IMG/VR virus record: IMGVR_UViG_2737471857_000007
Coordinates: 1 to 15,126 of that record
Strand: one strand, 5' to 3'
From: a virus
Lineage: Duplodnaviria > Heunggongvirae > Uroviricota > Caudoviricetes
Length of the DNA stretch: 15,126 nucleotides
A program made the translations under genes and the position numbers. This document shows, one piece after another, positions 6,480-15,126 of the stretch (the stretch's first letter is position 1; each line of letters begins with the position of its first letter). The notes below the pieces were generated by a model. The model ran no database searches and was not told the DNA's origin. It saw nothing but the letters and a program-made list of their open reading frames with translations.

Positions 6480-8085
6480 TTTATCGCATATTGCCGCCAT
6501 GGCATTTAATGAGCCGCTTTTACTGGAACCCGCCTATGCGCGGGTTTTCTTTTGCGCGCTGGGTAAAGAGATGGGGGCCGGCAGCCTTGCCGTTCCTCAG
6601 CAGGCTGTTCAGCTTGATGCTGATGGTATGCAGCTGGCTGTGACTGACTATATGGCGGGTGGTCAGCGTCCGGCAAAGAGTTACCAGGTGAAGAATGGCA
6701 TTGCCATTCTGCCGGTGAGCGGCACGCTGGTGCATAAACTGGGTACCCTGCGGCCTTACTCCGGCATGACAGGCTATGACGGCCTGACGGCCCGCCTTCA
6801 GATGGCAGTGAATGATCCGGATGTGCGCGGCATTTTGCTGGATATCGACAGCCCGGGCGGTCAGGCTGCCGGGGCGTTTGACTGTGCTGACATGATTTAC
6901 CGTCTGCGGGAACAGAAGCCCGTGTGGGCGCTGTGTAATGACATGGCCTGTTCAGCCGCCATGTTGCTGGCGGCAGCCTGTACGCGTCGGCTGGTCACGC
7001 AGACGGCAAAAATTGGTTCGATTGGTGTGATGATGGCGCACACCAGTTACGAGAAACAACTGGCACAGGAAGGGGTGGACATCACGCTGATTTACTCCGG
7101 GCAGCACAAGGTTGACGGCAACAGTATTCAGGCATTGCCGGCAGGTGTGCGTGCAGATTTTCAGCGCCGTATTGATGAGGCCCGCCGGATGTTTGTCGAC
7201 AAGGTGGCGCTTTATACGGGGCTGAGTTCAGAGGCGGTGATGAATACCGAGGCTGCCGTTTATGACGGTCAGGCAGGGATTGATGCAGGCCTGGCTGATC
7301 AACTGATTAATGCTGCAGATGCCGTTGAAGTGATGGTTTCTGCAATAAATAAAGAAATTAATAGAGAGGTAAATATGTCGCAAACGAATGTTTCGATCAT
7401 TGAGGCTGTGGCCCAGGAAAATCAGCGCGTGATGGAGATCCTGAATTGTCAGGAGGCAAAAGGACGCGAACAACTGGCGAAGATGCTGGCAGGGCAACCA
7501 GGAATGTCGGTTGAGCAGGCGAAAGCTTTCCTGGCTGCTGTGCCTGCTGCCAGTGTGGCAAATACAGGTGATCAGATTATGGCGCTGCCGGAAGCAAAAG
7601 GGCGTGAACAGCTGGCGCAGATGCTGGCAGGTCAGCCGGGAATGACGGTGGAGCAGGCGAAAGCGTTTCTGGCGGCAGCCCCTGCTGCCAGTACTGCAGG
7701 CACAGGCGATCAGATTATGGCGCTGCCGGAAGCAAAAGGGCGTGAACAACTGGCACAGGCACTGGCTGAACAGCCGGGAATGACCGTTGACCAGGCAAAA
7801 ACGTTACTGGCGGCGGCACCGGTTGCGGGTTCTGTAAGTGTTGGCGGGCAGATTATGGCACTACCGGAGGCGAAAGGGCGCGAACAACTTGCACAGGCAC
7901 TGACAGAACAGCCAGGAATGACGGTGGCGCAGGCGAAAACACTGCTGGCAGCCGTGCCGGCGGCATCGCAACCGTCACAGGAAACACTTTTTGATCGCTT
8001 TATGGCCCAGCATGCTGCCAGTGCGGTTTCCGGTGGCGGAACTGCCGGGCGCGGGGAGGAAGACCTGCTGATGAGTATGCCGTAA
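6469..8085 (+). CDS. C: prohead protease / scaffold polyprotein (lambda gpC-like, S49 ClpP-type peptidase) with expanded C-terminal scaffold domain
   Basis: N-terminal ~300 aa match lambda gpC (HIAAMAFNEPLLLEPAYARVFFCAL, SYQV.NGIA.LPVSGTLV, GSIGVMMAH, ITLIYSG.HKVDGN, TEAAVY.GQ..IDAGLAD). The C-terminal part holds ~3.7 tandem copies of a 46-aa unit; total 538 aa versus 439 in lambda. Start overlaps the B 3' end. Confidence 0.9.
   Translation: MRRNLSHIAAMAFNEPLLLEPAYARVFFCALGKEMGAGSLAVPQQAVQLDADGMQLAVTDYMAGGQRPAKSYQVKNGIAILPVSGTLVHKLGTLRPYSGMTGYDGLTARLQMAVNDPDVRGILLDIDSPGGQAAGAFDCADMIYRLREQKPVWALCNDMACSAAMLLAAACTRRLVTQTAKIGSIGVMMAHTSYEKQLAQEGVDITLIYSGQHKVDGNSIQALPAGVRADFQRRIDEARRMFVDKVALYTGLSSEAVMNTEAAVYDGQAGIDAGLADQLINAADAVEVMVSAINKEINREVNMSQTNVSIIEAVAQENQRVMEILNCQEAKGREQLAKMLAGQPGMSVEQAKAFLAAVPAASVANTGDQIMALPEAKGREQLAQMLAGQPGMTVEQAKAFLAAAPAASTAGTGDQIMALPEAKGREQLAQALAEQPGMTVDQAKTLLAAAPVAGSVSVGGQIMALPEAKGREQLAQALTEQPGMTVAQAKTLLAAVPAASQPSQETLFDRFMAQHAASAVSGGGTAGRGEEDLLMSMP
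7375..8085 (+). CDS. Nu3: putative in-frame nested scaffold protein (lambda Nu3-like)
   Basis: Internal ATG at 7375 in the C frame, preceded by AGAGAGG (7363-7369) at 5-nt spacing. The downstream sequence (..AVAQENQRVMEILNCQEAKGRE..) matches the lambda Nu3 region (..AVAAENSRIMGILNCEEAHGRE..). Placement mirrors the lambda C/Nu3 nested arrangement. Confidence 0.5.
   Translation: MSQTNVSIIEAVAQENQRVMEILNCQEAKGREQLAKMLAGQPGMSVEQAKAFLAAVPAASVANTGDQIMALPEAKGREQLAQMLAGQPGMTVEQAKAFLAAAPAASTAGTGDQIMALPEAKGREQLAQALAEQPGMTVDQAKTLLAAAPVAGSVSVGGQIMALPEAKGREQLAQALTEQPGMTVAQAKTLLAAVPAASQPSQETLFDRFMAQHAASAVSGGGTAGRGEEDLLMSMP
7453..7968 (+). repeat. in-frame 138-bp (46-codon) tandem repeat, about 3.7 copies, inside C/Nu3
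   Basis: Units at 7453-7590, 7591-7728, 7729-7866 and a partial unit at 7867-7968, each encoding EAKGREQLAQ(M/A)LA(G/E)QPGM(S/T)V(E/D/A)QAK(A/T)(F/L)LAA.P.A....G.QIMALP. Lambda carries a single related copy. Confidence 0.9.
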
Positions 8086-8123
8086 GCGGTATCCGGAATT
8101 CAGATAAATCAGGAGACTGAAAA

Positions 8124-8459
8124 ATGATTAAAACCACCACGGAAAAGCGTGCAGATGTGCATATTTTTGCCGGAAGCGATCCGGCGCATACCGCAACTGC
8201 CACCAGTGGTATCAGTGCCGCCACGCCAGCACTGACACCGCTGATGCTGGATGACACCACCGGTAAAATGGTGGCATGGGATGGTCAGAAAGCCGGAACG
8301 GCAGTGGGTGTGCTGGCTCTGGCGCTTACCGGAACAGAACCCATGCTGACGTACTACAAAAGCGGTACGTTTGCCACTGAGTCGCTGGTCTGGCCTGACT
8401 CTGTGGATGCGGTGAAAAAAGCCAACGCATTTGTGGGAAGTGCCATCAGCCACGCCTGA
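8124..8459 (+). CDS. D: head decoration protein (lambda gpD-like)
   Basis: 111 aa. SDPAHTATA, TPLMLD, VAWDG and YKSGTF blocks match lambda gpD (110 aa). AGGAG at 8111-8115 lies 8 nt upstream of the ATG. Confidence 0.9.
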   Translation: MIKTTTEKRADVHIFAGSDPAHTATATSGISAATPALTPLMLDDTTGKMVAWDGQKAGTAVGVLALALTGTEPMLTYYKSGTFATESLVWPDSVDAVKKANAFVGSAISHA

Positions 8460-8480
8460 TGGTGAAGTGATTAACTGAAA

Positions 8481-8510
8481 AACGGGTCGCGATGCGGCCC
8501 GTTTGTGTTT
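8481..8510 (+). terminator. intercistronic stem-loop with T-rich tail between D and E (possible attenuator or RNA-stability element)
   Basis: AACGGGTCGC-GAT-GCGGCCCGTT forms a 10-bp stem (one G-U pair) with a 3-nt loop, followed by TGTGTTTCTG. Confidence 0.4.
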
Positions 8511-8527
8511 CTGAAGGAATATAAATT

Positions 8528-9556
8528 ATGGGGTTATTTACCACGCGTCAGTTACTCGGGTACACCGAGCAGAAAGTGAAATTTCGTGCGCTGTTTCTGG
8601 AGCTGTTCTTTCGTCGCACGATCACTTTCCATACTCAGGAAGTCATGCTGGATAAAATTACCGGCAAAACACCGGTTGCGGCGTATGTGTCTCCGGTGGT
8701 GTCAGGCAAAGTGCTGCGCAGCCGTGGTGGTGAAACCCGTGTGTTACGTCCTGGTTATGTAAAACCAAAACACCGCTTTGATTATCAGCAGGCAGTGGAA
8801 CGTCTTCCGGGAGAAGATCCGGCCCGCCTTAATGACCCGGCTTACCGCCGTTTGCGTATTCTGACGGACAACCTGAAACAGGAAGAGCAGGCGATTGTGC
8901 AGGTGGAAGAAATGCAGGCGGTCAGTGCCGTTCTGCAGGGTAAATACACCATGAGTGGCGAGCAGTTTGAAACGGTGGAAGTGGATTTTGGGCGTTCTGC
9001 CGCCAATAACATTACGCAGGCTGGCGGACGCGAATGGTCACAGCAGAATGCTGACACCTTCGATCCGACGCATGATCTGGATGCGTACTGCGATTTCGCT
9101 TCCGGCACCATCAATATCGCGATTATGGACGGCACGGTCTGGCGTATGCTGAACGGTTTTAAACTGTTCCGTGAGAAACTGGATACCAGCCGCGGCTCCA
9201 AATCTGAGCTGGAAACCGCACTGAAAGACCTGGGCTCCGTGGTTTCCTTTAAAGGTCATTACGGCGATCTGGCCATTGTGGTGGCGAAGACAACGTATGT
9301 TGACGAAAACGGGGATGAACAGCGTTATCTGCCGGAAGGTACACTGATTCTGGGGAACACTCAGGCGGAGGGCGTCCGTTGCTATGGCGCAATCCAGGAT
9401 AATCAGGCGCTGAGTGAAGGGATCACCTCTGCAACGCGTTATCCGAAACACTGGGAGGTTATTGGCGATCCAAGTTGTGAATATACCATGACGCAGTCTG
9501 CGCCGTTGATGGTGTTGCCGGATCCGGATGCGTTTGTGGTGGTTCAGGTGAAATAA
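8528..9556 (+). CDS. E: major capsid protein (lambda gpE-like)
   Basis: 342 aa versus 341 in lambda. Shared blocks: LRPGYVKPKH, DPAYRR.RI, VEEMQAVSAVLQGKYTMSGE, TRYPKHW, DP..E.TM.QSAPLM.L.DPD.FV.VQ. Confidence 0.95.
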   Translation: MGLFTTRQLLGYTEQKVKFRALFLELFFRRTITFHTQEVMLDKITGKTPVAAYVSPVVSGKVLRSRGGETRVLRPGYVKPKHRFDYQQAVERLPGEDPARLNDPAYRRLRILTDNLKQEEQAIVQVEEMQAVSAVLQGKYTMSGEQFETVEVDFGRSAANNITQAGGREWSQQNADTFDPTHDLDAYCDFASGTINIAIMDGTVWRMLNGFKLFREKLDTSRGSKSELETALKDLGSVVSFKGHYGDLAIVVAKTTYVDENGDEQRYLPEGTLILGNTQAEGVRCYGAIQDNQALSEGITSATRYPKHWEVIGDPSCEYTMTQSAPLMVLPDPDAFVVVQVK

Positions 9557-9560
9557 GACG

Positions 9561-9588
9561 GGGCGGGATATTCCCGCCTTTTTCTTTA
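9561..9588 (+). terminator. rho-independent terminator-like hairpin after the capsid gene
   Basis: GGCGGGA-TAT-TCCCGCC (7-bp stem, 3-nt loop) followed by TTTTTCTTT, starting 5 nt after the E stop. Probably a partial terminator, since the late genes continue downstream. Confidence 0.55.
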
Positions 9589-9606
9589 GCGCACGGGAGA
9601 GATGTG

Positions 9607-9972
9607 ATGACAAAAGAGCAGATGACTGAACGTTTGCAGGAACTGGCAGTGATTCTGGGGCGTGAAGCAGATATTTCAGGTTCAAAAGCCGATCTTGAGC
9701 AGCGCCTGGCGGAATGGGAAGAGGAGGCCGCCGGATTCGATGGGGAGGAAACAGGGAAGGAAGAGGTGGGCAACGATGCATCCGGCGACGGAATGCATTC
9801 TGAGCGGGGACTCGCCCGGGTGCGTATGCTGAAAACGGCGCATATGCCAGCCTGTGATGCTGTGACGGGAAAAATGTTGATGTTTGCCCGGGCCTCGAGT
9901 GTTGTGTTGGTTAATGAAGCCGCAGTTCCTGCGTTGCTGGCGGACGGTCTGGCAGAAAAAATCCGGGAGTGA
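9607..9972 (+). CDS. FI: DNA-packaging / head assembly protein (lambda gpFI-like)
   Basis: MTKEQMTERLQELAVILGRE..SGSKADLEQRLAEWEEE resembles the lambda FI N-terminus (MTKDELIARLRSLGEQLNRD..TGTKEELALRVAELKEE), and a C-terminal ERGLAR motif is shared. GGGAGAG at 9593-9599 precedes the ATG. Confidence 0.75.
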   Translation: MTKEQMTERLQELAVILGREADISGSKADLEQRLAEWEEEAAGFDGEETGKEEVGNDASGDGMHSERGLARVRMLKTAHMPACDAVTGKMLMFARASSVVLVNEAAVPALLADGLAEKIRE

Positions 9973-10376
9973 TGATGTTCGATAATCTGTTCGATCAGGC
10001 CATGAGTGATGCGGATGACATCATCCTGGATACGATGGGGACGGAAATCAGCATATATCCGGGCGGCACGGAAAGAAGAATCCGTGCCGTTTTTGATGCT
10101 CCGGCAGATAACACCGGGATGAACACTGGCAGCGGCGAAATTCGTGATACTGCGCCTGTATTATTTACCCGGAGCGTATGGGCCGCCGGTCTGAAAAAAT
10201 ATGACAGGGTCATGATCCACGGCGAACCCTATCAGGTAGTCGATCCAGGCTGGGATGAGTCAGGCACTGCGGGTCAGGGGGTGATTACCATCATCCTCGC
10301 GCGGGGAGAGCCGGGGAGAAATACACCTGCTGCACCGGAACGACCGAGTAAACGTTATGGCAGTCAGAGAGCATGA
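9972..10376 (+). CDS. FII: head-tail connector / head completion protein (lambda gpFII-like)
   Basis: MMFDNLFDQAMSDADDIILDTMGTE..RAVFD resembles lambda FII (MADFDNLFDAAIARADETIRGYMGT..RGVFD). Start overlaps the FI stop (TGATG). About 18 aa longer than lambda FII at the C-terminus. Confidence 0.7.
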   Translation: MMFDNLFDQAMSDADDIILDTMGTEISIYPGGTERRIRAVFDAPADNTGMNTGSGEIRDTAPVLFTRSVWAAGLKKYDRVMIHGEPYQVVDPGWDESGTAGQGVITIILARGEPGRNTPAAPERPSKRYGSQRA

Positions 10377-11079
10377 ACGAAGCAGTGCCCGGCAGCGACG
10401 GCTGGCACGAAACCTCGTCGTCGATATTGATGAAGATGAGGTGCTGAAAATTATCGCTAAACTGGGTGGTTCAAAAAGCCAGATCCGTAAAGCCTGGGGC
10501 GTGGCGCTGAAAAGAGCCGCGTCCGCACTGCGGATGAAGGCCATGGCAGAGTTTAAAAAACAGGTTGCCCCACGCAGTCAGAAAATGATCGGAAGGCGTG
10601 TGCTGCGTGATTTTGTCATTCGTAGAAACGGCGATGAGTTTGACGAGGCAAAGGTATGGTTCGGCCTGAACGCCATCAAAGTACGCGATCTGCGCGGACG
10701 CATCAGTGGTGGACGACGCGGCGAACGCCATCAGTTGCGTGATGTGCGGGGACGTTTTGCTCCAGCTTCACGCAGCAGGAAGGCGAGGGAGATCCGTTTT
10801 AAACCTGCCGGTGAGGCAATACCGGTCACCACCTGGTCAGGTGATGAGGCCTTCATTAATGAATTTGAGTCTGAAAACCGGCGCGGACGTATTTCACGGC
10901 GTAAGACTGTCCTGGTCCGTCAGGTATCAGGACGACGAAGGGTGCGTGAAGCGGAAATTGATATTTACGAAGCCATGCTGAACCGTATAGAGGATTTTGT
11001 TTTTCCGGATGCGGAAGCACTGATCCTGAAAAATTTTGAGCATGAACTGAAATTCCGGGTATTTAAGGGGCTGGAGTGA
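10357..11079 (+). CDS. putative tail-completion / head-tail adaptor protein (basic, Arg-rich; possibly lambda gpZ-like)
   Basis: 240-aa ORF overlapping the FII 3' end by 20 nt. Very basic middle region (RGRISGGRRGERHQLRDVRGR..SRSRKAR) recalling the Arg/Lys-rich core of lambda gpZ. Assigned mainly by position between the head completion genes and the baseplate genes. Confidence 0.4.
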   Translation: MAVREHERSSARQRRLARNLVVDIDEDEVLKIIAKLGGSKSQIRKAWGVALKRAASALRMKAMAEFKKQVAPRSQKMIGRRVLRDFVIRRNGDEFDEAKVWFGLNAIKVRDLRGRISGGRRGERHQLRDVRGRFAPASRSRKAREIRFKPAGEAIPVTTWSGDEAFINEFESENRRGRISRRKTVLVRQVSGRRRVREAEIDIYEAMLNRIEDFVFPDAEALILKNFEHELKFRVFKGLE

Positions 11080-11642
11080 TGGAGCCATTAATGATGGGCG
11101 CCTGGCATCAGGCGGTTATTGACAGTCTGAAACAAATTCCCTGGGTGGAAGATGCCGATGAGTACCCGGAAAAAGAGACGCAACTGGTGACGCCTGCCGT
11201 GTTTGTTGATGTGCCCGGCTGGGACAAGGCCCAGTTTGCCGACGGGCAGACACGGGTCACGCTGAAATGCGATCTGTTTGTGGTGACAGACCGGGCCGGG
11301 AAGACGGAGAACGTGCCAAAACCGCAGATATTTGCCCGTTGTCTGGCGATGGATTTGTCCGACTGGATTGAGGGAGCCACGTTCGGGCTGGATAACGTTG
11401 ACCCGGCCATTTTTATTGATGCTGAAGTGGATACCTTCGACCGCCTGCTGGATGACTACATCGTTTTCCGCGTTTCTTTTGAACAGGATATTCCGGTCGG
11501 GGAAGATCCGTTCGATGTTCCGGCTGGTGCGCCATTACAGGAAGTCTGGCTGGGGAAAGTACCGGAAACCGGCAAGAGACATGAGCAGGATTATCGTCTT
11601 ATCTGGAAATCGGAGGGCACCGGTGATGAGTCTGGCAGATGA
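11079..11642 (+). CDS. putative tail terminator / tail-completion protein (gpU or P2 gpR-like)
   Basis: About 187 aa, acidic, start overlapping the upstream stop (TGATG). Weak resemblance to the lambda gpU N-terminus (AAVLDALEK..PAVAVYL versus AVIDSLKQ..PAVFVDV). Assigned mainly by position immediately upstream of baseplate gene V. Confidence 0.35.
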   Translation: MEPLMMGAWHQAVIDSLKQIPWVEDADEYPEKETQLVTPAVFVDVPGWDKAQFADGQTRVTLKCDLFVVTDRAGKTENVPKPQIFARCLAMDLSDWIEGATFGLDNVDPAIFIDAEVDTFDRLLDDYIVFRVSFEQDIPVGEDPFDVPAGAPLQEVWLGKVPETGKRHEQDYRLIWKSEGTGDESGR

Positions 11643-12249
11643 AGTGGCAGAGTTACGCCGCAGGGTGGCGGATATGGTCCGGCGTGGTGTGGTGGAGGAT
11701 GTGATCCCGGGCAGCCCGGTGATGGTCCGGGTGGATATCGGGGATGTGCTTTCGCCGCCTTTGCCCTGGATTCAGGTACAGTCCGGGCGCTACATGCAGG
11801 TCAGTAATTATCCGGCCCCCGGCGATGCCGTTACAGTGATATCGGAGGCGGGCGATTTGCGTAATGGTCGGGTGTATCCGGGGGCCAATATTGACGCCAT
11901 TCCTGTCCCTGAGGGCAGTGAATACGAACATGTTATTTTGTTTGATACCGGAACGGAAATCCGTTACGACCGTCAGGCTAATGCCCTGTCCATCACGCTG
12001 GCTGAAGGCGGCAGCTATAAAATTACAGGCAGGGGAACCCTGGACGGTCCGGTAGAAATCACAGATACCCTGACCGTACAGGGTAAAGCAATCATGAATG
12101 CTGAGGCGGTGGTTAAGGCGGATCTGATGGTCGGTGGTGAGGTTTCTGATTATCACGGAACGATGAGTCAAATCAGAATTGTCTATAACGGTCACAATCA
12201 CCGGGGCGACAGTGGTGGCAGCACCGGACAGCCTGGTCAGCAAATGTAA
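11626..12249 (+). CDS. V: baseplate assembly protein V (P2 gpV-like baseplate hub/spike)
   Basis: ATG 11626 preceded by GGAGGG, overlapping the upstream gene by 17 nt. C-terminal NGHNHRGDSGGSTGQP matches the P2 gpV C-terminus (HTHKHPGDSGGTTGSP); overall length (207 aa) is close to P2 gpV (211 aa). Confidence 0.85.
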   Translation: MSLADEVAELRRRVADMVRRGVVEDVIPGSPVMVRVDIGDVLSPPLPWIQVQSGRYMQVSNYPAPGDAVTVISEAGDLRNGRVYPGANIDAIPVPEGSEYEHVILFDTGTEIRYDRQANALSITLAEGGSYKITGRGTLDGPVEITDTLTVQGKAIMNAEAVVKADLMVGGEVSDYHGTMSQIRIVYNGHNHRGDSGGSTGQPGQQM

Positions 12250-12282
12250 TCTCCTTTCAGTTCTTTTTCCGGAATAAACAAC

Positions 12283-12639
12283 ATGATTGGTATTGATTCA
12301 GCCACCGGCAGATATCTGCACGGTAACGAACATCTGCGCCAGTCCGTCACCGATATTTTGTCAACACCGGTCGGCAGCCGGGTCCTGCTCAGGGAATACG
12401 GCAGCAGACTTTTCAGTCTGCTTGATAACCCACAGGATGATTTCACGCGGGTGAGAATTGTGCGTGAAACGGTAACCGCCCTTGAACGCTGGGAACCCCG
12501 CCTGACTCTCCGGCGGGTGGAAGTGACGTGGACAGGAGAAGGAAGCGCGTGGCTGACGCTTGTCGGGGTGAACAACGAAACTCAGGATACGATTCGACTC
12601 GAGGAGATAAAAATTGGCAACGTCTCAGGCAATCATTGA
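12283..12639 (+). CDS. W: baseplate wedge protein W (P2 gpW / gp25-like)
   Basis: 118 aa. SVTDILSTPVGSRVLLREYGSRLFSLLD..ERWEPRLTL parallels P2 gpW (SIGDILRTPVGSRVMRRDYGSLLASMID..LKWEPRVTL). Confidence 0.85.
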   Translation: MIGIDSATGRYLHGNEHLRQSVTDILSTPVGSRVLLREYGSRLFSLLDNPQDDFTRVRIVRETVTALERWEPRLTLRRVEVTWTGEGSAWLTLVGVNNETQDTIRLEEIKIGNVSGNH

Positions 12640-13528
12640 TCTGTCCGCGATACCGGTACCGGATGCGGTGGAAGTGCCGGATACCGCAATGCTGGTCACT
12701 CAGATAGTGGCGAAGTATCAGGAACTGGATACGTTGTTTTCGGCTCTGGTGGAATCTGATCCCGCGTATAAATGGGCAGAGGCGCTGGCTTTTCGGGTGG
12801 CGCTGATGCGCCAGCAGATAAATGATGCTGTCCGTGCTGTACTGCTTGCCAGTGCCGGTGGGAGCGATCTGGATCAGGTTGGTGCGAATTATCAGGTTCA
12901 GCGGCTGGTCATTACCCCGGCAGACGACAGCACCATTCCGCCCACGCCGGCGGTGTATGAAGATGATGACGCTTTTCGCGAACGTATCCAGTTGTCGTGG
13001 GCACGGCTCAGCACCGCCGGCGCGAAAAATGCGTATCACTATTTTGCACAAAGTGCTGATCCTGATGTGCTGGATGTGAAGGCTTACGGGCCGGAAACGC
13101 ACTCGCAGGAAGGCCGCGTTTTTCTTTATGTTTTATCCCGGTCAGGAAATGGCAGCGCATCACAACCCCTGCTGGATAAGGTGGCAGCATCAGTCAGTGA
13201 TGATGAAACCCGTCCCCTGACGGATTTTGTCAGTGTCCGGACGGCAGAAATTATTCCCTACGATGTGGTGGCGGATATTCATATTCCCTACGGACTGGAT
13301 GGTGAACTGGTTATGGCAAATGCCCGCAAGGCGCTGCAGTCATACACTGACAGCGTCCACCGGATTGGCTCGGTGGCATCCCGTTCTGGCATGGATGGTG
13401 CCTTTCACCAGACCGGGGTGATTACTGTGAATCTGACCTCTCCGGGCAGTGATATCGTTCCTGCGATGGGGCAGGCACCGTGGTGCCGTAAGGTAACGCT
13501 GAATAAGGTGGAGACAACTGATGAATGA
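12614..13528 (+). CDS. J: baseplate assembly protein J (P2 gpJ-like)
   Basis: 304 aa versus 302 in P2. IIDLSAIPVPD, LVITPADDSTIPPTPAV and GANYQV blocks match P2 gpJ (IIDLNQLPAPD, LTITPADDSTIPPTPAV, GANYN). The frame has a TAA at 12608-12610, so initiation must be at TTG 12614, which has GAGGAG 7 nt upstream. Overlaps the W 3' end by 26 nt. Confidence 0.9.
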   Translation: MATSQAIIDLSAIPVPDAVEVPDTAMLVTQIVAKYQELDTLFSALVESDPAYKWAEALAFRVALMRQQINDAVRAVLLASAGGSDLDQVGANYQVQRLVITPADDSTIPPTPAVYEDDDAFRERIQLSWARLSTAGAKNAYHYFAQSADPDVLDVKAYGPETHSQEGRVFLYVLSRSGNGSASQPLLDKVAASVSDDETRPLTDFVSVRTAEIIPYDVVADIHIPYGLDGELVMANARKALQSYTDSVHRIGSVASRSGMDGAFHQTGVITVNLTSPGSDIVPAMGQAPWCRKVTLNKVETTDE

Positions 13529-14111
13529 CGATATCAGGAGCATACTGCCGGTCAGTGCCAGCCGGGCGGAGCGGGTGGTGGACTGTGTCGCCGGAGATAT
13601 GCTGTCAGATATAGCGGTCTGCCTGATCCGCTATGTGAAAAATCCCGATTTATGTCCTGCTGAATTGCTGCCATGGCTGGCCTGGGAAATGGCGGTGGAC
13701 ACCTGGAATGAACACTGGACGGAGGCGGAAAAACGGTCTGCGATAAAACGTGCTGCTTACATCCACCGCCACAGAGGGACTAAAGCGGCGCTGATGGCAT
13801 CGCTGGCTGACAGTCCCTTCCGGTCGCAGATTGTTGAGTGGTATGAGCAGACCCCACCCGGGGAGCCGTATACCTTTCGTCTGAACGTGGAGCAGAAGGA
13901 TTTACCGGTACTGATGAATGATCATCAGGATCTGAAGCATGCGGTACTCCGTGCCAAAAATCTGCGCAGCTGGTTCAGTATTCACGTCTACGGGAACAGC
14001 ACAGGGCGGGGATTTGGTTACGGCTATGTGATGGCGACAGAAAAAATCAGAAGTACCGGTGTGATAACAAAGACAGTGCCCACTGAAGGGCAGAGTGAGG
14101 CAGGAGTATGA
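13521..14111 (+). CDS. I: baseplate / tail protein I (P2 gpI-like)
   Basis: 196 aa. VCLIRYVKNPDLCPAELLPWLAWEMAVDTWNEHWTEAEKR resembles P2 gpI (..CLIR.SKNP.TCPASLLPWLAWEWGVDTW.DDWTEEQKR). ATG 13521 preceded by AAGGTGGAG; overlaps the J 3' end by 8 nt. Confidence 0.8.
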   Translation: MNDDIRSILPVSASRAERVVDCVAGDMLSDIAVCLIRYVKNPDLCPAELLPWLAWEMAVDTWNEHWTEAEKRSAIKRAAYIHRHRGTKAALMASLADSPFRSQIVEWYEQTPPGEPYTFRLNVEQKDLPVLMNDHQDLKHAVLRAKNLRSWFSIHVYGNSTGRGFGYGYVMATEKIRSTGVITKTVPTEGQSEAGV

Positions 14112-15126
14112 ATGGACTGATTCTGACAACGTCCGGCGCAGCAGAAATTGAAGCAGCATATCAGAACGGGCAAACCGTGACCGTCCGGCATGTTCTGCTT
14201 GGTGACGGGGGCGGGCAGGCATTGCCATCCACGCCGGATGAAATGGCAGCAATGACATCATTGTACGGCGAATTCGGGCAGGAACCCTTTTCCGACGGTG
14301 CGGTGGAGGAGGGCTTCATCAGCGGGGATATTGTGATTGACTGTAAATCATACCCCGGTAAAACCCTTCGTGAACTGGGGATGATCAGCGACAGAGGTAC
14401 GCTTATCGCGTACGGACGTTATCCGGACACCTTTTTACCAGACCAGACGGATTCCGTTATTAAGGAAGTTATTCTGACGCTGGTTCTTGGACTGACGCAC
14501 GCGCAAAGCGTGGTGCTGGAGGTTGATCCGGACAGAGCCATTATTACTCAGGAAATCGGAGACAGACGCTATCTGCAACGAAAAAATAATCTTTCGGATG
14601 TGGAAGACAAGGATGAGTCTGTTGAAAACCTCGGATTAAAACCCACGGTGGATAAGGCAAAAAATGCCGTTCAGCGTGATGGTGACACCATGAGCGGGGA
14701 ACTGAAAATCCGTGGTGTTAATGCGCTGAGGATTTTCAACGAAGCCTTTGGTCTGATTTTTCGCCGTTCGGAAGAGTGCCTGCACCTTATTCCTACCAGT
14801 GAAGGTCAGGGTGAAAATGGTGATATTGGCTCATTGCGCCCGTTCAGTATTGACTTGCGGACGGGGGAGATATCCATGTCGCACAAAGTGTCTGTTGGCG
14901 GTGGCTCTCAGGTGAATGGTGCGCTGGGTATCGGTGTTCAGAATGCGCTGGGTGGTAACTCAATTGCAATTGGTGACAGTGATACTGGCTTTAAACAGAA
15001 TGGTGACGGCCTGCTGGATGTTTATGCCAATGGTCAGCACGTATTCCGTTTTCAGAATGGCGAGTTACAAAGTAACCGGGCAGTGAATGTTTCAGGGCGG
15101 GTGACACCGTCAGACTACGGAAACTT
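14108..15126 (+). CDS. H: tail fibre protein (P2 gpH-like), 5' portion only, truncated by the window end
   Basis: ATG 14108 overlaps the I stop (ATGA). N-terminus MNGLILTTSGAAEIEAAY..VLLGDGGG resembles P2 gpH (..VITTAGAAKLAAA..MAVGDGGG). Downstream blocks AVQRDGDTMSGEL and NALGGNSIAIGDSDTGFKQNGDGLLDVYANGQHVFRFQNG match conserved P2 gpH motifs (AVQKNGDTLSGGL; NALGGSSIVLGDNDTGFKQNGDGILDVYANSQRVFRFQNG). No stop before the window end; this ORF is absent from the supplied track for that reason. Confidence 0.85.
   Translation, partial: MNGLILTTSGAAEIEAAYQNGQTVTVRHVLLGDGGGQALPSTPDEMAAMTSLYGEFGQEPFSDGAVEEGFISGDIVIDCKSYPGKTLRELGMISDRGTLIAYGRYPDTFLPDQTDSVIKEVILTLVLGLTHAQSVVLEVDPDRAIITQEIGDRRYLQRKNNLSDVEDKDESVENLGLKPTVDKAKNAVQRDGDTMSGELKIRGVNALRIFNEAFGLIFRRSEECLHLIPTSEGQGENGDIGSLRPFSIDLRTGEISMSHKVSVGGGSQVNGALGIGVQNALGGNSIAIGDSDTGFKQNGDGLLDVYANGQHVFRFQNGELQSNRAVNVSGRVTPSDYGN

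Follow-up and report, generated by a model that had tools for sequence, protein, structure and literature searches.

Four tandem units in a gpC/Nu3-type gene

The DNA analysed here (the window) is a stretch of 15,126 nucleotides from IMG/VR virus record IMGVR_UViG_2737471857_000007 (Caudoviricetes), and the gene of interest, at 6469-8085 on its plus strand, codes for a protein of 538 amino acids (aa) made up of an S49 prohead protease, a hinge, four tandem units of ~41 aa and a C-terminal tail. We regard this gene as the equivalent of C/Nu3 of phage lambda and consider it rather probable that its four units are helix-loop-helix docking modules that make both scaffold and protease multivalent, the docking step being the part that we infer.

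A single tandem array was found in the window by Tandem Repeats Finder (7452-7938, period 138 bp, 3.5 copies, 81% matches, 0% indels, score 533), in frame with the plus-strand open reading frame (ORF) 6469-8085, in agreement with a previous sequence-only reading that had located a 138-bp in-frame repeat in the protease/scaffold gene. The repeat core motif, EAKGREQLAxxLxxQPGMTVxQAKxxLAAxP, is matched four times by its hidden Markov model (HMM) in the 538-aa protein, at aa 329-360, 375-406, 421-452 and 467-498 (nucleotides 7453-7962), with the spacing of 46 aa that the same reading had described for four consecutive units. In front of every core lies a conserved hydrophobic stretch of a few residues (RVMEILNCQ in unit 1, QIMALP in units 2-4), and once this upstream helix is counted there are four complete units, separated by variable 5-residue linkers of Ala, Ser, Thr and Gly. 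The earlier figure of 3.7 copies falls short of this number. Specifically, unit 1, RVMEILNCQ-EAKGREQLAKMLAGQPGMSVEQAKAFLAAVPA, occupies 7426-7548 (aa 320-360), unit 2 7564-7686 (aa 366-406), unit 3 7702-7824 (aa 412-452) and unit 4 7840-7962 (aa 458-498), with linkers at 7549-7563, 7687-7701 and 7825-7839. The non-repeated tail that follows, SQPSQETLFDRFMAQHAASAVSGGGTAGRGEEDLLMSMP (7963-8082), is homologous to the tail of phage 21 gp5/gp6 (alignment A2).

The description of the units as near-identical or perfect copies did not hold, since they share only 70-83% of their DNA in pairwise comparisons (67-89% identity in protein) and are old and diverged. The longest exact run between neighbouring units is a single tract of 41 bp (7570-7610, identical to 7708-7748), whereas units two apart share no exact run above 13 bp and those three apart none above 11 bp. 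Only the 41-bp tract has the length that homologous unequal exchange between units would need to be efficient.

Tandem motifs of this kind are not, as had been implied, new, and have been on record since the deposition of the phage 21 sequence (GenBank M81255.1). There, gene 6 is annotated with a 'Tri1 box', a 'Tri box' and a 'Tri3 box', noted as 'function unknown; putative', the coordinates of which coincide with three HMM matches. What the window has in its equivalent of phage 21 genes 5/6 are tandem copies (the four HMM matches) of this Tri-box unit, I[ML]xxxEAxGRExLAxxLAxxPGMTxExAxxxLAAxP. The likeness extends to the position of the gene, the S49 protease with a nested scaffold (predicted in the window), the C-terminal tail and the period (~46 aa, ~140 bp). 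Phage 21 differs in having three units, strongly diverged from each other, whereas the lineage of the window has four and also a five-unit allele, and the head genes of the window are joined to a contractile tail of P2 type. Our literature searches on the phage 21 Tri boxes, on domain mapping of gpNu3 and on lambda procapsid structures with Nu3 returned no description of the boxes beyond the GenBank feature table, and the JBD30 publication holds nothing on the motif. New, therefore, are the four- and five-unit forms, the purifying selection on every unit and the suggested lineage-specific origin of units 2-4. The expansion of the scaffold part of the gene is real, and it varies a known theme to a modest degree.

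Selection on the units

A way to see whether additional units matter to the phage is to compare their substitutions with those of the protease that they are attached to. Between the units of the window the synonymous divergence (dS) is 0.6-1.5, that is, near saturation, and the ratio of nonsynonymous to synonymous divergence (dN/dS) is 0.04-0.20. When single units are compared between alleles the ratio stays at 0-0.20 (0.09-0.18 for unit 1, 0-0.20 for unit 2, 0-0.12 for unit 3 and 0.12-0.14 for unit 4), and the protease domain gives 0.10-0.16. Since these values are low, and similar to those of the protease domain, the extra units are not neutral filler, and each module is held by purifying selection. 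The linkers and the hinge evolve much faster than the units; the linkers have a high dN, and in the allele called OkiPb one of them tolerates a deletion of 9 bp.

The repeat region as a whole (7426-7962) shows a between-allele dS of 0.25-0.55, two to four times higher than that of the protease domain (0.06-0.24). Segments of units also look swapped between positions; unit 1, for instance, ends in AKTLLAAAPVAGTDSTG in some alleles. The raised dS and the apparently exchanged parts suggest occasional gene conversion among the units.

Copy number in E. coli prophages

In order to follow the number of units among close relatives we have used a query anchored in the flanks of the array (window 7300-8100) against complete genomes of Escherichia coli. 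It matched 105 of them and, among the matches listed, spanned 792-801 bp in one piece with identities from 100% down to 81%. Four-unit alleles are found in ~96 complete genomes (81-100% identity), and all five of the alleles that were retrieved have four units, including that of OkiPb with its shortened linker. A longer allele of five units (584 aa), located in E. coli STEC005 at NZ_CP041437.1 2,733,633-2,735,387, is identical in nine genomes of Shiga toxin-producing E. coli (STEC) from goat, mutton, beef and pig. Units 1-3 of this allele are 92-96% identical in DNA, which points to a recent duplication. Both forms are present in the genome of STEC383, which carries one four-unit and one five-unit prophage. 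Four-unit alleles that have diverged down to 81% identity, together with the five-unit allele, indicate that the array is real, long-stable and still expandable, and the very existence of the latter implies that amplification is ongoing.

Tandem repeats are open to mis-assembly, and the sequence-only reading had warned that the array might be collapsed or artefactual. Short-read assemblies do break at the repeat. Many of the homologues in databases are incomplete proteins from short contigs that terminate within a unit, the S49 gene of UMNF18 is cut inside the repeat and abuts a fragment of a shikimate transporter, and a 306-kb record of STEC711 (NZ_CP041417.1) stops inside the repeat as well; the ends in these two strains probably reflect either an assembly that was joined or broken at the repeat or a prophage that is itself truncated. 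However, the four-unit gene is found at the same full length in the ~96 complete genomes, which are independent, and because the units differ by 17-30% in their DNA reads across the repeat are not ambiguous. A related proposal, that the expansion is unstable and neutral (fewer true units, or filler tolerated in a disordered scaffold), is opposed by a dN/dS of 0.2 or less for every unit, both between units and between alleles. An artefact or a neutral expansion is already largely refuted by these data, and we give it hardly any credence.

A gpC-like protease with a predicted nested scaffold

The N-terminal 295 residues of the 538-aa protein are a peptidase of the S49/SppA type, as recognised by Pfam (PF01343, Peptidase_S49, E=1.9e-33, 116 bits for a cut-off of 24.9) and by matches to SppA structures (4kwb/3rst, E=1.4e-16), with the SppA-like domain proper at 6904-7338 (aa 146-290). 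Two residues within it, S162 and K214, are invariant among the relatives in alignment A2 and are candidates for the catalytic dyad. The whole protein is 100% identical to WP_042966183.1, an 'S49 family peptidase' of E. coli 08-00022. Upstream lie Nu1, gpA, gpW and a portal of the lambda family (Phage_portal_2), and downstream a gpD-type head decoration protein (8124-8459, plus strand, HDPD), a gpE-type major capsid protein (8528-9556, plus strand, Phage_cap_E), which would be the binding partner of the units, FI and FII. The peptidase and these head-gene neighbours identify 6469-8085 as the lambda C/Nu3 equivalent, and the sequence-only reading was right to place the repeat in the Nu3-like part, at the C-terminal end, of a gene of gpC type.

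Third codon positions in the frame of gene C hold most of the differences (112 of 175 between units and 373 of 575 between alleles), and an antisense ORF of 173 aa (7228-7749) contains stops in three of the four other alleles. The plus frame is thus the coding one, the substitution pattern fits it, and the antisense ORF was rejected as a gene. Pfam matches of the scaffold part to Peptidase_C23, DUF732, Bac_DNA_binding and T2SSK were likewise discarded as artefacts; their cut-offs were reached only by summing four weak matches to the repeat, with 0-2 significant stretches each.

As in phage 21, the scaffold appears to be encoded a second time from within the protease gene. A Shine-Dalgarno-like GAGAGG (7364-7369) precedes an internal in-frame ATG by 5 nucleotides, and the signal GAGAGG-N5-ATG at 7364-7377 corresponds in position to the annotated gene 6 of phage 21. 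Both elements are kept in phage 21 and hold their position across diverged alleles even though the surrounding hinge is saturated with substitutions. From this conservation, and from the coincidence with gene 6, we predict a nested ORF at 7375-8085 in the gene C frame, the positional equivalent of gene 6, that probably yields a scaffold of 236 aa sharing the C-terminus of gene C. PHROG matches within it are to 'head scaffolding protein' and 'capsid assembly protein', in four stretches each. The predicted scaffold is ~35 aa longer than its counterparts in lambda (201 aa) and phage 21 (200 aa). The sequence-only reading had estimated that ~100 residues were added, which is correct for the gpC-like protein, 99 aa longer than that of lambda (538 versus 439 aa), and too high for the predicted Nu3-type product.

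The hinge of the window itself (7354-7425, aa 296-319) is wholly unlike the one common to the other four-unit alleles (dS 1.8, dN 0.49), while its flanks are 94-99% identical. It looks like a small mosaic replacement in which the ribosome-binding signal and ATG were retained in place.

Distribution and origin of the unit

Lambda gpC/gpNu3 is homologous over the whole protease domain (56% identity, alignment A2), follows the principle of nested genes that we predict for the window and has the same neighbours B, D and E. It has a single copy of the motif, ILNCEEAHGREEQARVLAETPGMTVKTARRILAAAP, where the window has four, which bears out the one related copy that had been attributed to it; it also differs in a much longer hinge and in the annotated start of Nu3, which falls within the protease domain (gpC residue 239). 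In species-representative genomes most gpC homologues have one copy, and three are found in Escherichia albertii, Trabulsiella and Providencia. A collection of 5.8 billion proteins gave matches with one, two, three or four copies. When 1.84 billion cluster representatives were searched exhaustively with the profile, 400 proteins were obtained at E<=0.001. Of the best 150 of these 400, almost every one has a single copy; two or three copies occur in a few, and three is the maximum. With the five-unit allele, the numbers seen across all relatives are 1, 2, 3, 4 and 5, so the variation in copy number among gpC/Nu3 homologues about which the sequence-only reading had wondered does exist.

The origin of the extra units can be glimpsed from a neighbour-joining tree of the units, weak as it is with 41 residues. 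In it, unit 1 of the window falls with the units that come first in other phages, those of phage 21 and Trabulsiella among them, and units 2-4 form one group, near the class of third units. A one-to-one orthology with Tri1, Tri2 and Tri3 was not found, as only unit 1 joins the Tri1-type units in this weak tree. Because units 2-4 group together, amplification within this lineage is suggested rather than phage 21 plus one; unit 1 may accordingly be the ancestral first module, with units 2-4 amplified within this prophage lineage.

The motif is not restricted to S49 proteases. It appears also at the C-terminus of prohead proteases of the ClpP family, and the two loci of this kind that were examined both have HDPD and Phage_cap_E genes directly downstream. 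Stand-alone proteins of 130-230 aa carry it too. In Bradyrhizobium, small integrase-bearing elements with DUF6074 proteins contain a stand-alone two-unit protein of 197-223 aa, an adjacent protein of 297 aa and then a PhageMin_Tail protein. The 297-aa neighbour was considered as a gpE-type capsid protein and rejected, as it gave no signal with Pfam, PHROG or BLASTP. They may represent satellites of phages, or else defective prophages, in which the capsid protein has escaped recognition.

Possible role of the units

The structural prediction proposed by the sequence-only reading presents the unit as a helix-loop-helix bead. Specifically, in the AlphaFold2 model of the predicted 236-aa scaffold there are four helical beads with a predicted local distance difference test score (pLDDT) of 80-90, unit 2 among them, joined by low-confidence linkers; the predicted template modelling score is 0.31, and the beads therefore have no fixed mutual arrangement. 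Fold searches returned nothing specific. We propose that the unit is a docking element for the inner face of the gpE-type procapsid shell, or for scaffold chains on the shell. With several modules on each scaffold or protease chain, several capsid subunits could be bound at once, and this multivalency would replace oligomerisation of the scaffold and secure the co-assembly of the protease. The linkers would act as spacers and are probable regions of cleavage; after assembly, the protease would cut the chain and the fragments would exit. No change in the size of the capsid is expected from such a mechanism. A broader version of it, which we put forward tentatively and hold to be less likely than not, treats the ~41-aa unit as a portable module for docking on the capsid, the number of copies setting the valency of scaffold and protease, so that otherwise homologous lambda-type T=7 heads would come in a natural allelic series of one to five units, with four and five segregating in E. 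coli prophages.

A known scaffold offers a possible functional analogy. The scaffold protein gp8 of phage P22 is mostly flexible and has a small, basic, helix-turn-helix domain near its C-terminus that binds the coat protein. The units resemble this arrangement in being small, helix-loop-helix, endowed with basic residues and located near the C-terminus of a scaffold; P22 gp8 differs in that each chain has a single domain of this kind and is not fused to a protease. Pfam, structure and fold searches gave no match of sequence or fold between the unit and the P22 coat-binding domain.

Several observations weigh against docking on the shell. The model of the single unit is only of moderate confidence (pLDDT 66), gpE is an assumed partner (the portal, other scaffold chains or the protease could take its place), the use of the internal start is deduced only from its conservation, and the tree behind the history of the units is, as mentioned, a weak one. 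Moreover, a constant position beside an E-type capsid gene fails in Bradyrhizobium, since the neighbour of the two-unit protein there has no detectable similarity to gpE. The serious rival is that the unit mediates self-association of the scaffold or recruitment of the portal (gpB), extra copies giving a larger scaffold core or nucleation complex. In lambda, two-hybrid and genetic data report Nu3-Nu3, Nu3-B and C-Nu3 interactions, and Nu3 is required for the incorporation of B (PMC3224144); in addition, no part of the Nu3 region is better conserved than the motif. The same work, however, reports an interaction of Nu3 with E, and when the family of the protease changes the motif travels with genes of the gpD/gpE type, although the portal there is also of the lambda family, so that this last point does not separate the two readings. 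We hold self-association or portal recruitment to be clearly less likely than docking on the shell, with a fair minority of our belief. Weaker is the proposal that the units are repeated substrate or recognition sites of the S49 protease, so that with more copies the scaffold would be cut more often, into smaller pieces that leave the procapsid more easily. The scaffold must be degraded before DNA is packaged, lambda C is thought to degrade Nu3 (PMC3224144), and regular beads with exposed linkers would give regular cleavage. Yet conservation resides in the helical core and not in the linkers, which are the easiest parts to cut and the most variable, and the only gpC-dependent cleavage annotated for lambda in NC_001416, at residue 22/23 of gpB, bears by eye no visible resemblance to the units. 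This makes repeated cleavage sites improbable.

The last alternative concerns the size of the head. Scaffold proteins set capsid size elsewhere (for example, P4 Sid and SaPI CpmB), and a longer scaffold could in principle give a different capsid size or triangulation (T) number in this lineage, an effect of scaffold length that the sequence-only reading had also raised. The major capsid protein of the window (342 aa), however, aligns over residues 1-341 with lambda gpE (341 aa), at 59% identity, and a homologue of gpD is present. Genome size shows no trend with the number of units either: lambda has one unit and 48.5 kb, phage 21 three and 42.9 kb, PhiR12_2 three and 51.9 kb, and this prophage four and ~46-49 kb. 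We have rejected this hypothesis on the length and identity of the capsid protein and on the genome sizes; a different T number is unlikely, the capsid has probably kept its size, and little of our belief goes to scaffold length as a determinant of it. The end-to-end alignment with gpE leaves no room for a delta domain of HK97 type (an N-terminal extension of ~100 aa on the major capsid protein), a term that had been applied to the scaffold part.

The contact between scaffold and shell in lambda-type phages (Nu3) is still poorly defined, and the Tri boxes are labelled 'function unknown' in GenBank. The box is widely conserved as a single-copy module, its extra copies are under purifying selection, and one to five copies are found on very similar heads, all of which points to a functional contact element. 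If valency is indeed what the copies provide, the natural series allows a direct test of the effect of scaffold valency on procapsid nucleation, fidelity and scaffold-to-coat stoichiometry. For annotation, gpC-like genes of 440-585 aa are to be expected, as are short-read contigs that break inside them. The general picture of phage head assembly is unchanged.

Prophage context

In strain 08-00022 (NZ_CP013662.1 1,484,000-1,533,000) the corresponding prophage is inserted in ompW and measures ~49 kb, a length that includes an IS66 insertion close to the right end. It is a hybrid, in which lambda-type Nu1, A, W, B, C, D, E, FI and FII are followed by a P2-type contractile tail (on the side of window 10357-15126) with baseplate V/W/J/I, sheath, tube, gpX and gpD-like genes. 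The window is 99.89% identical to this strain over 2035-15126, with one gap of 1 bp, and its left 2 kb (1-2034) differ; strain RM9088 covers 1-14705 at 97.8%. The large terminase of the window (2741-4699) is an open ORF of 652 aa with both gpA domains, and the same gene is marked as 'frameshifted' by PGAP in 08-00022. The single 1-bp gap may be this frameshift.

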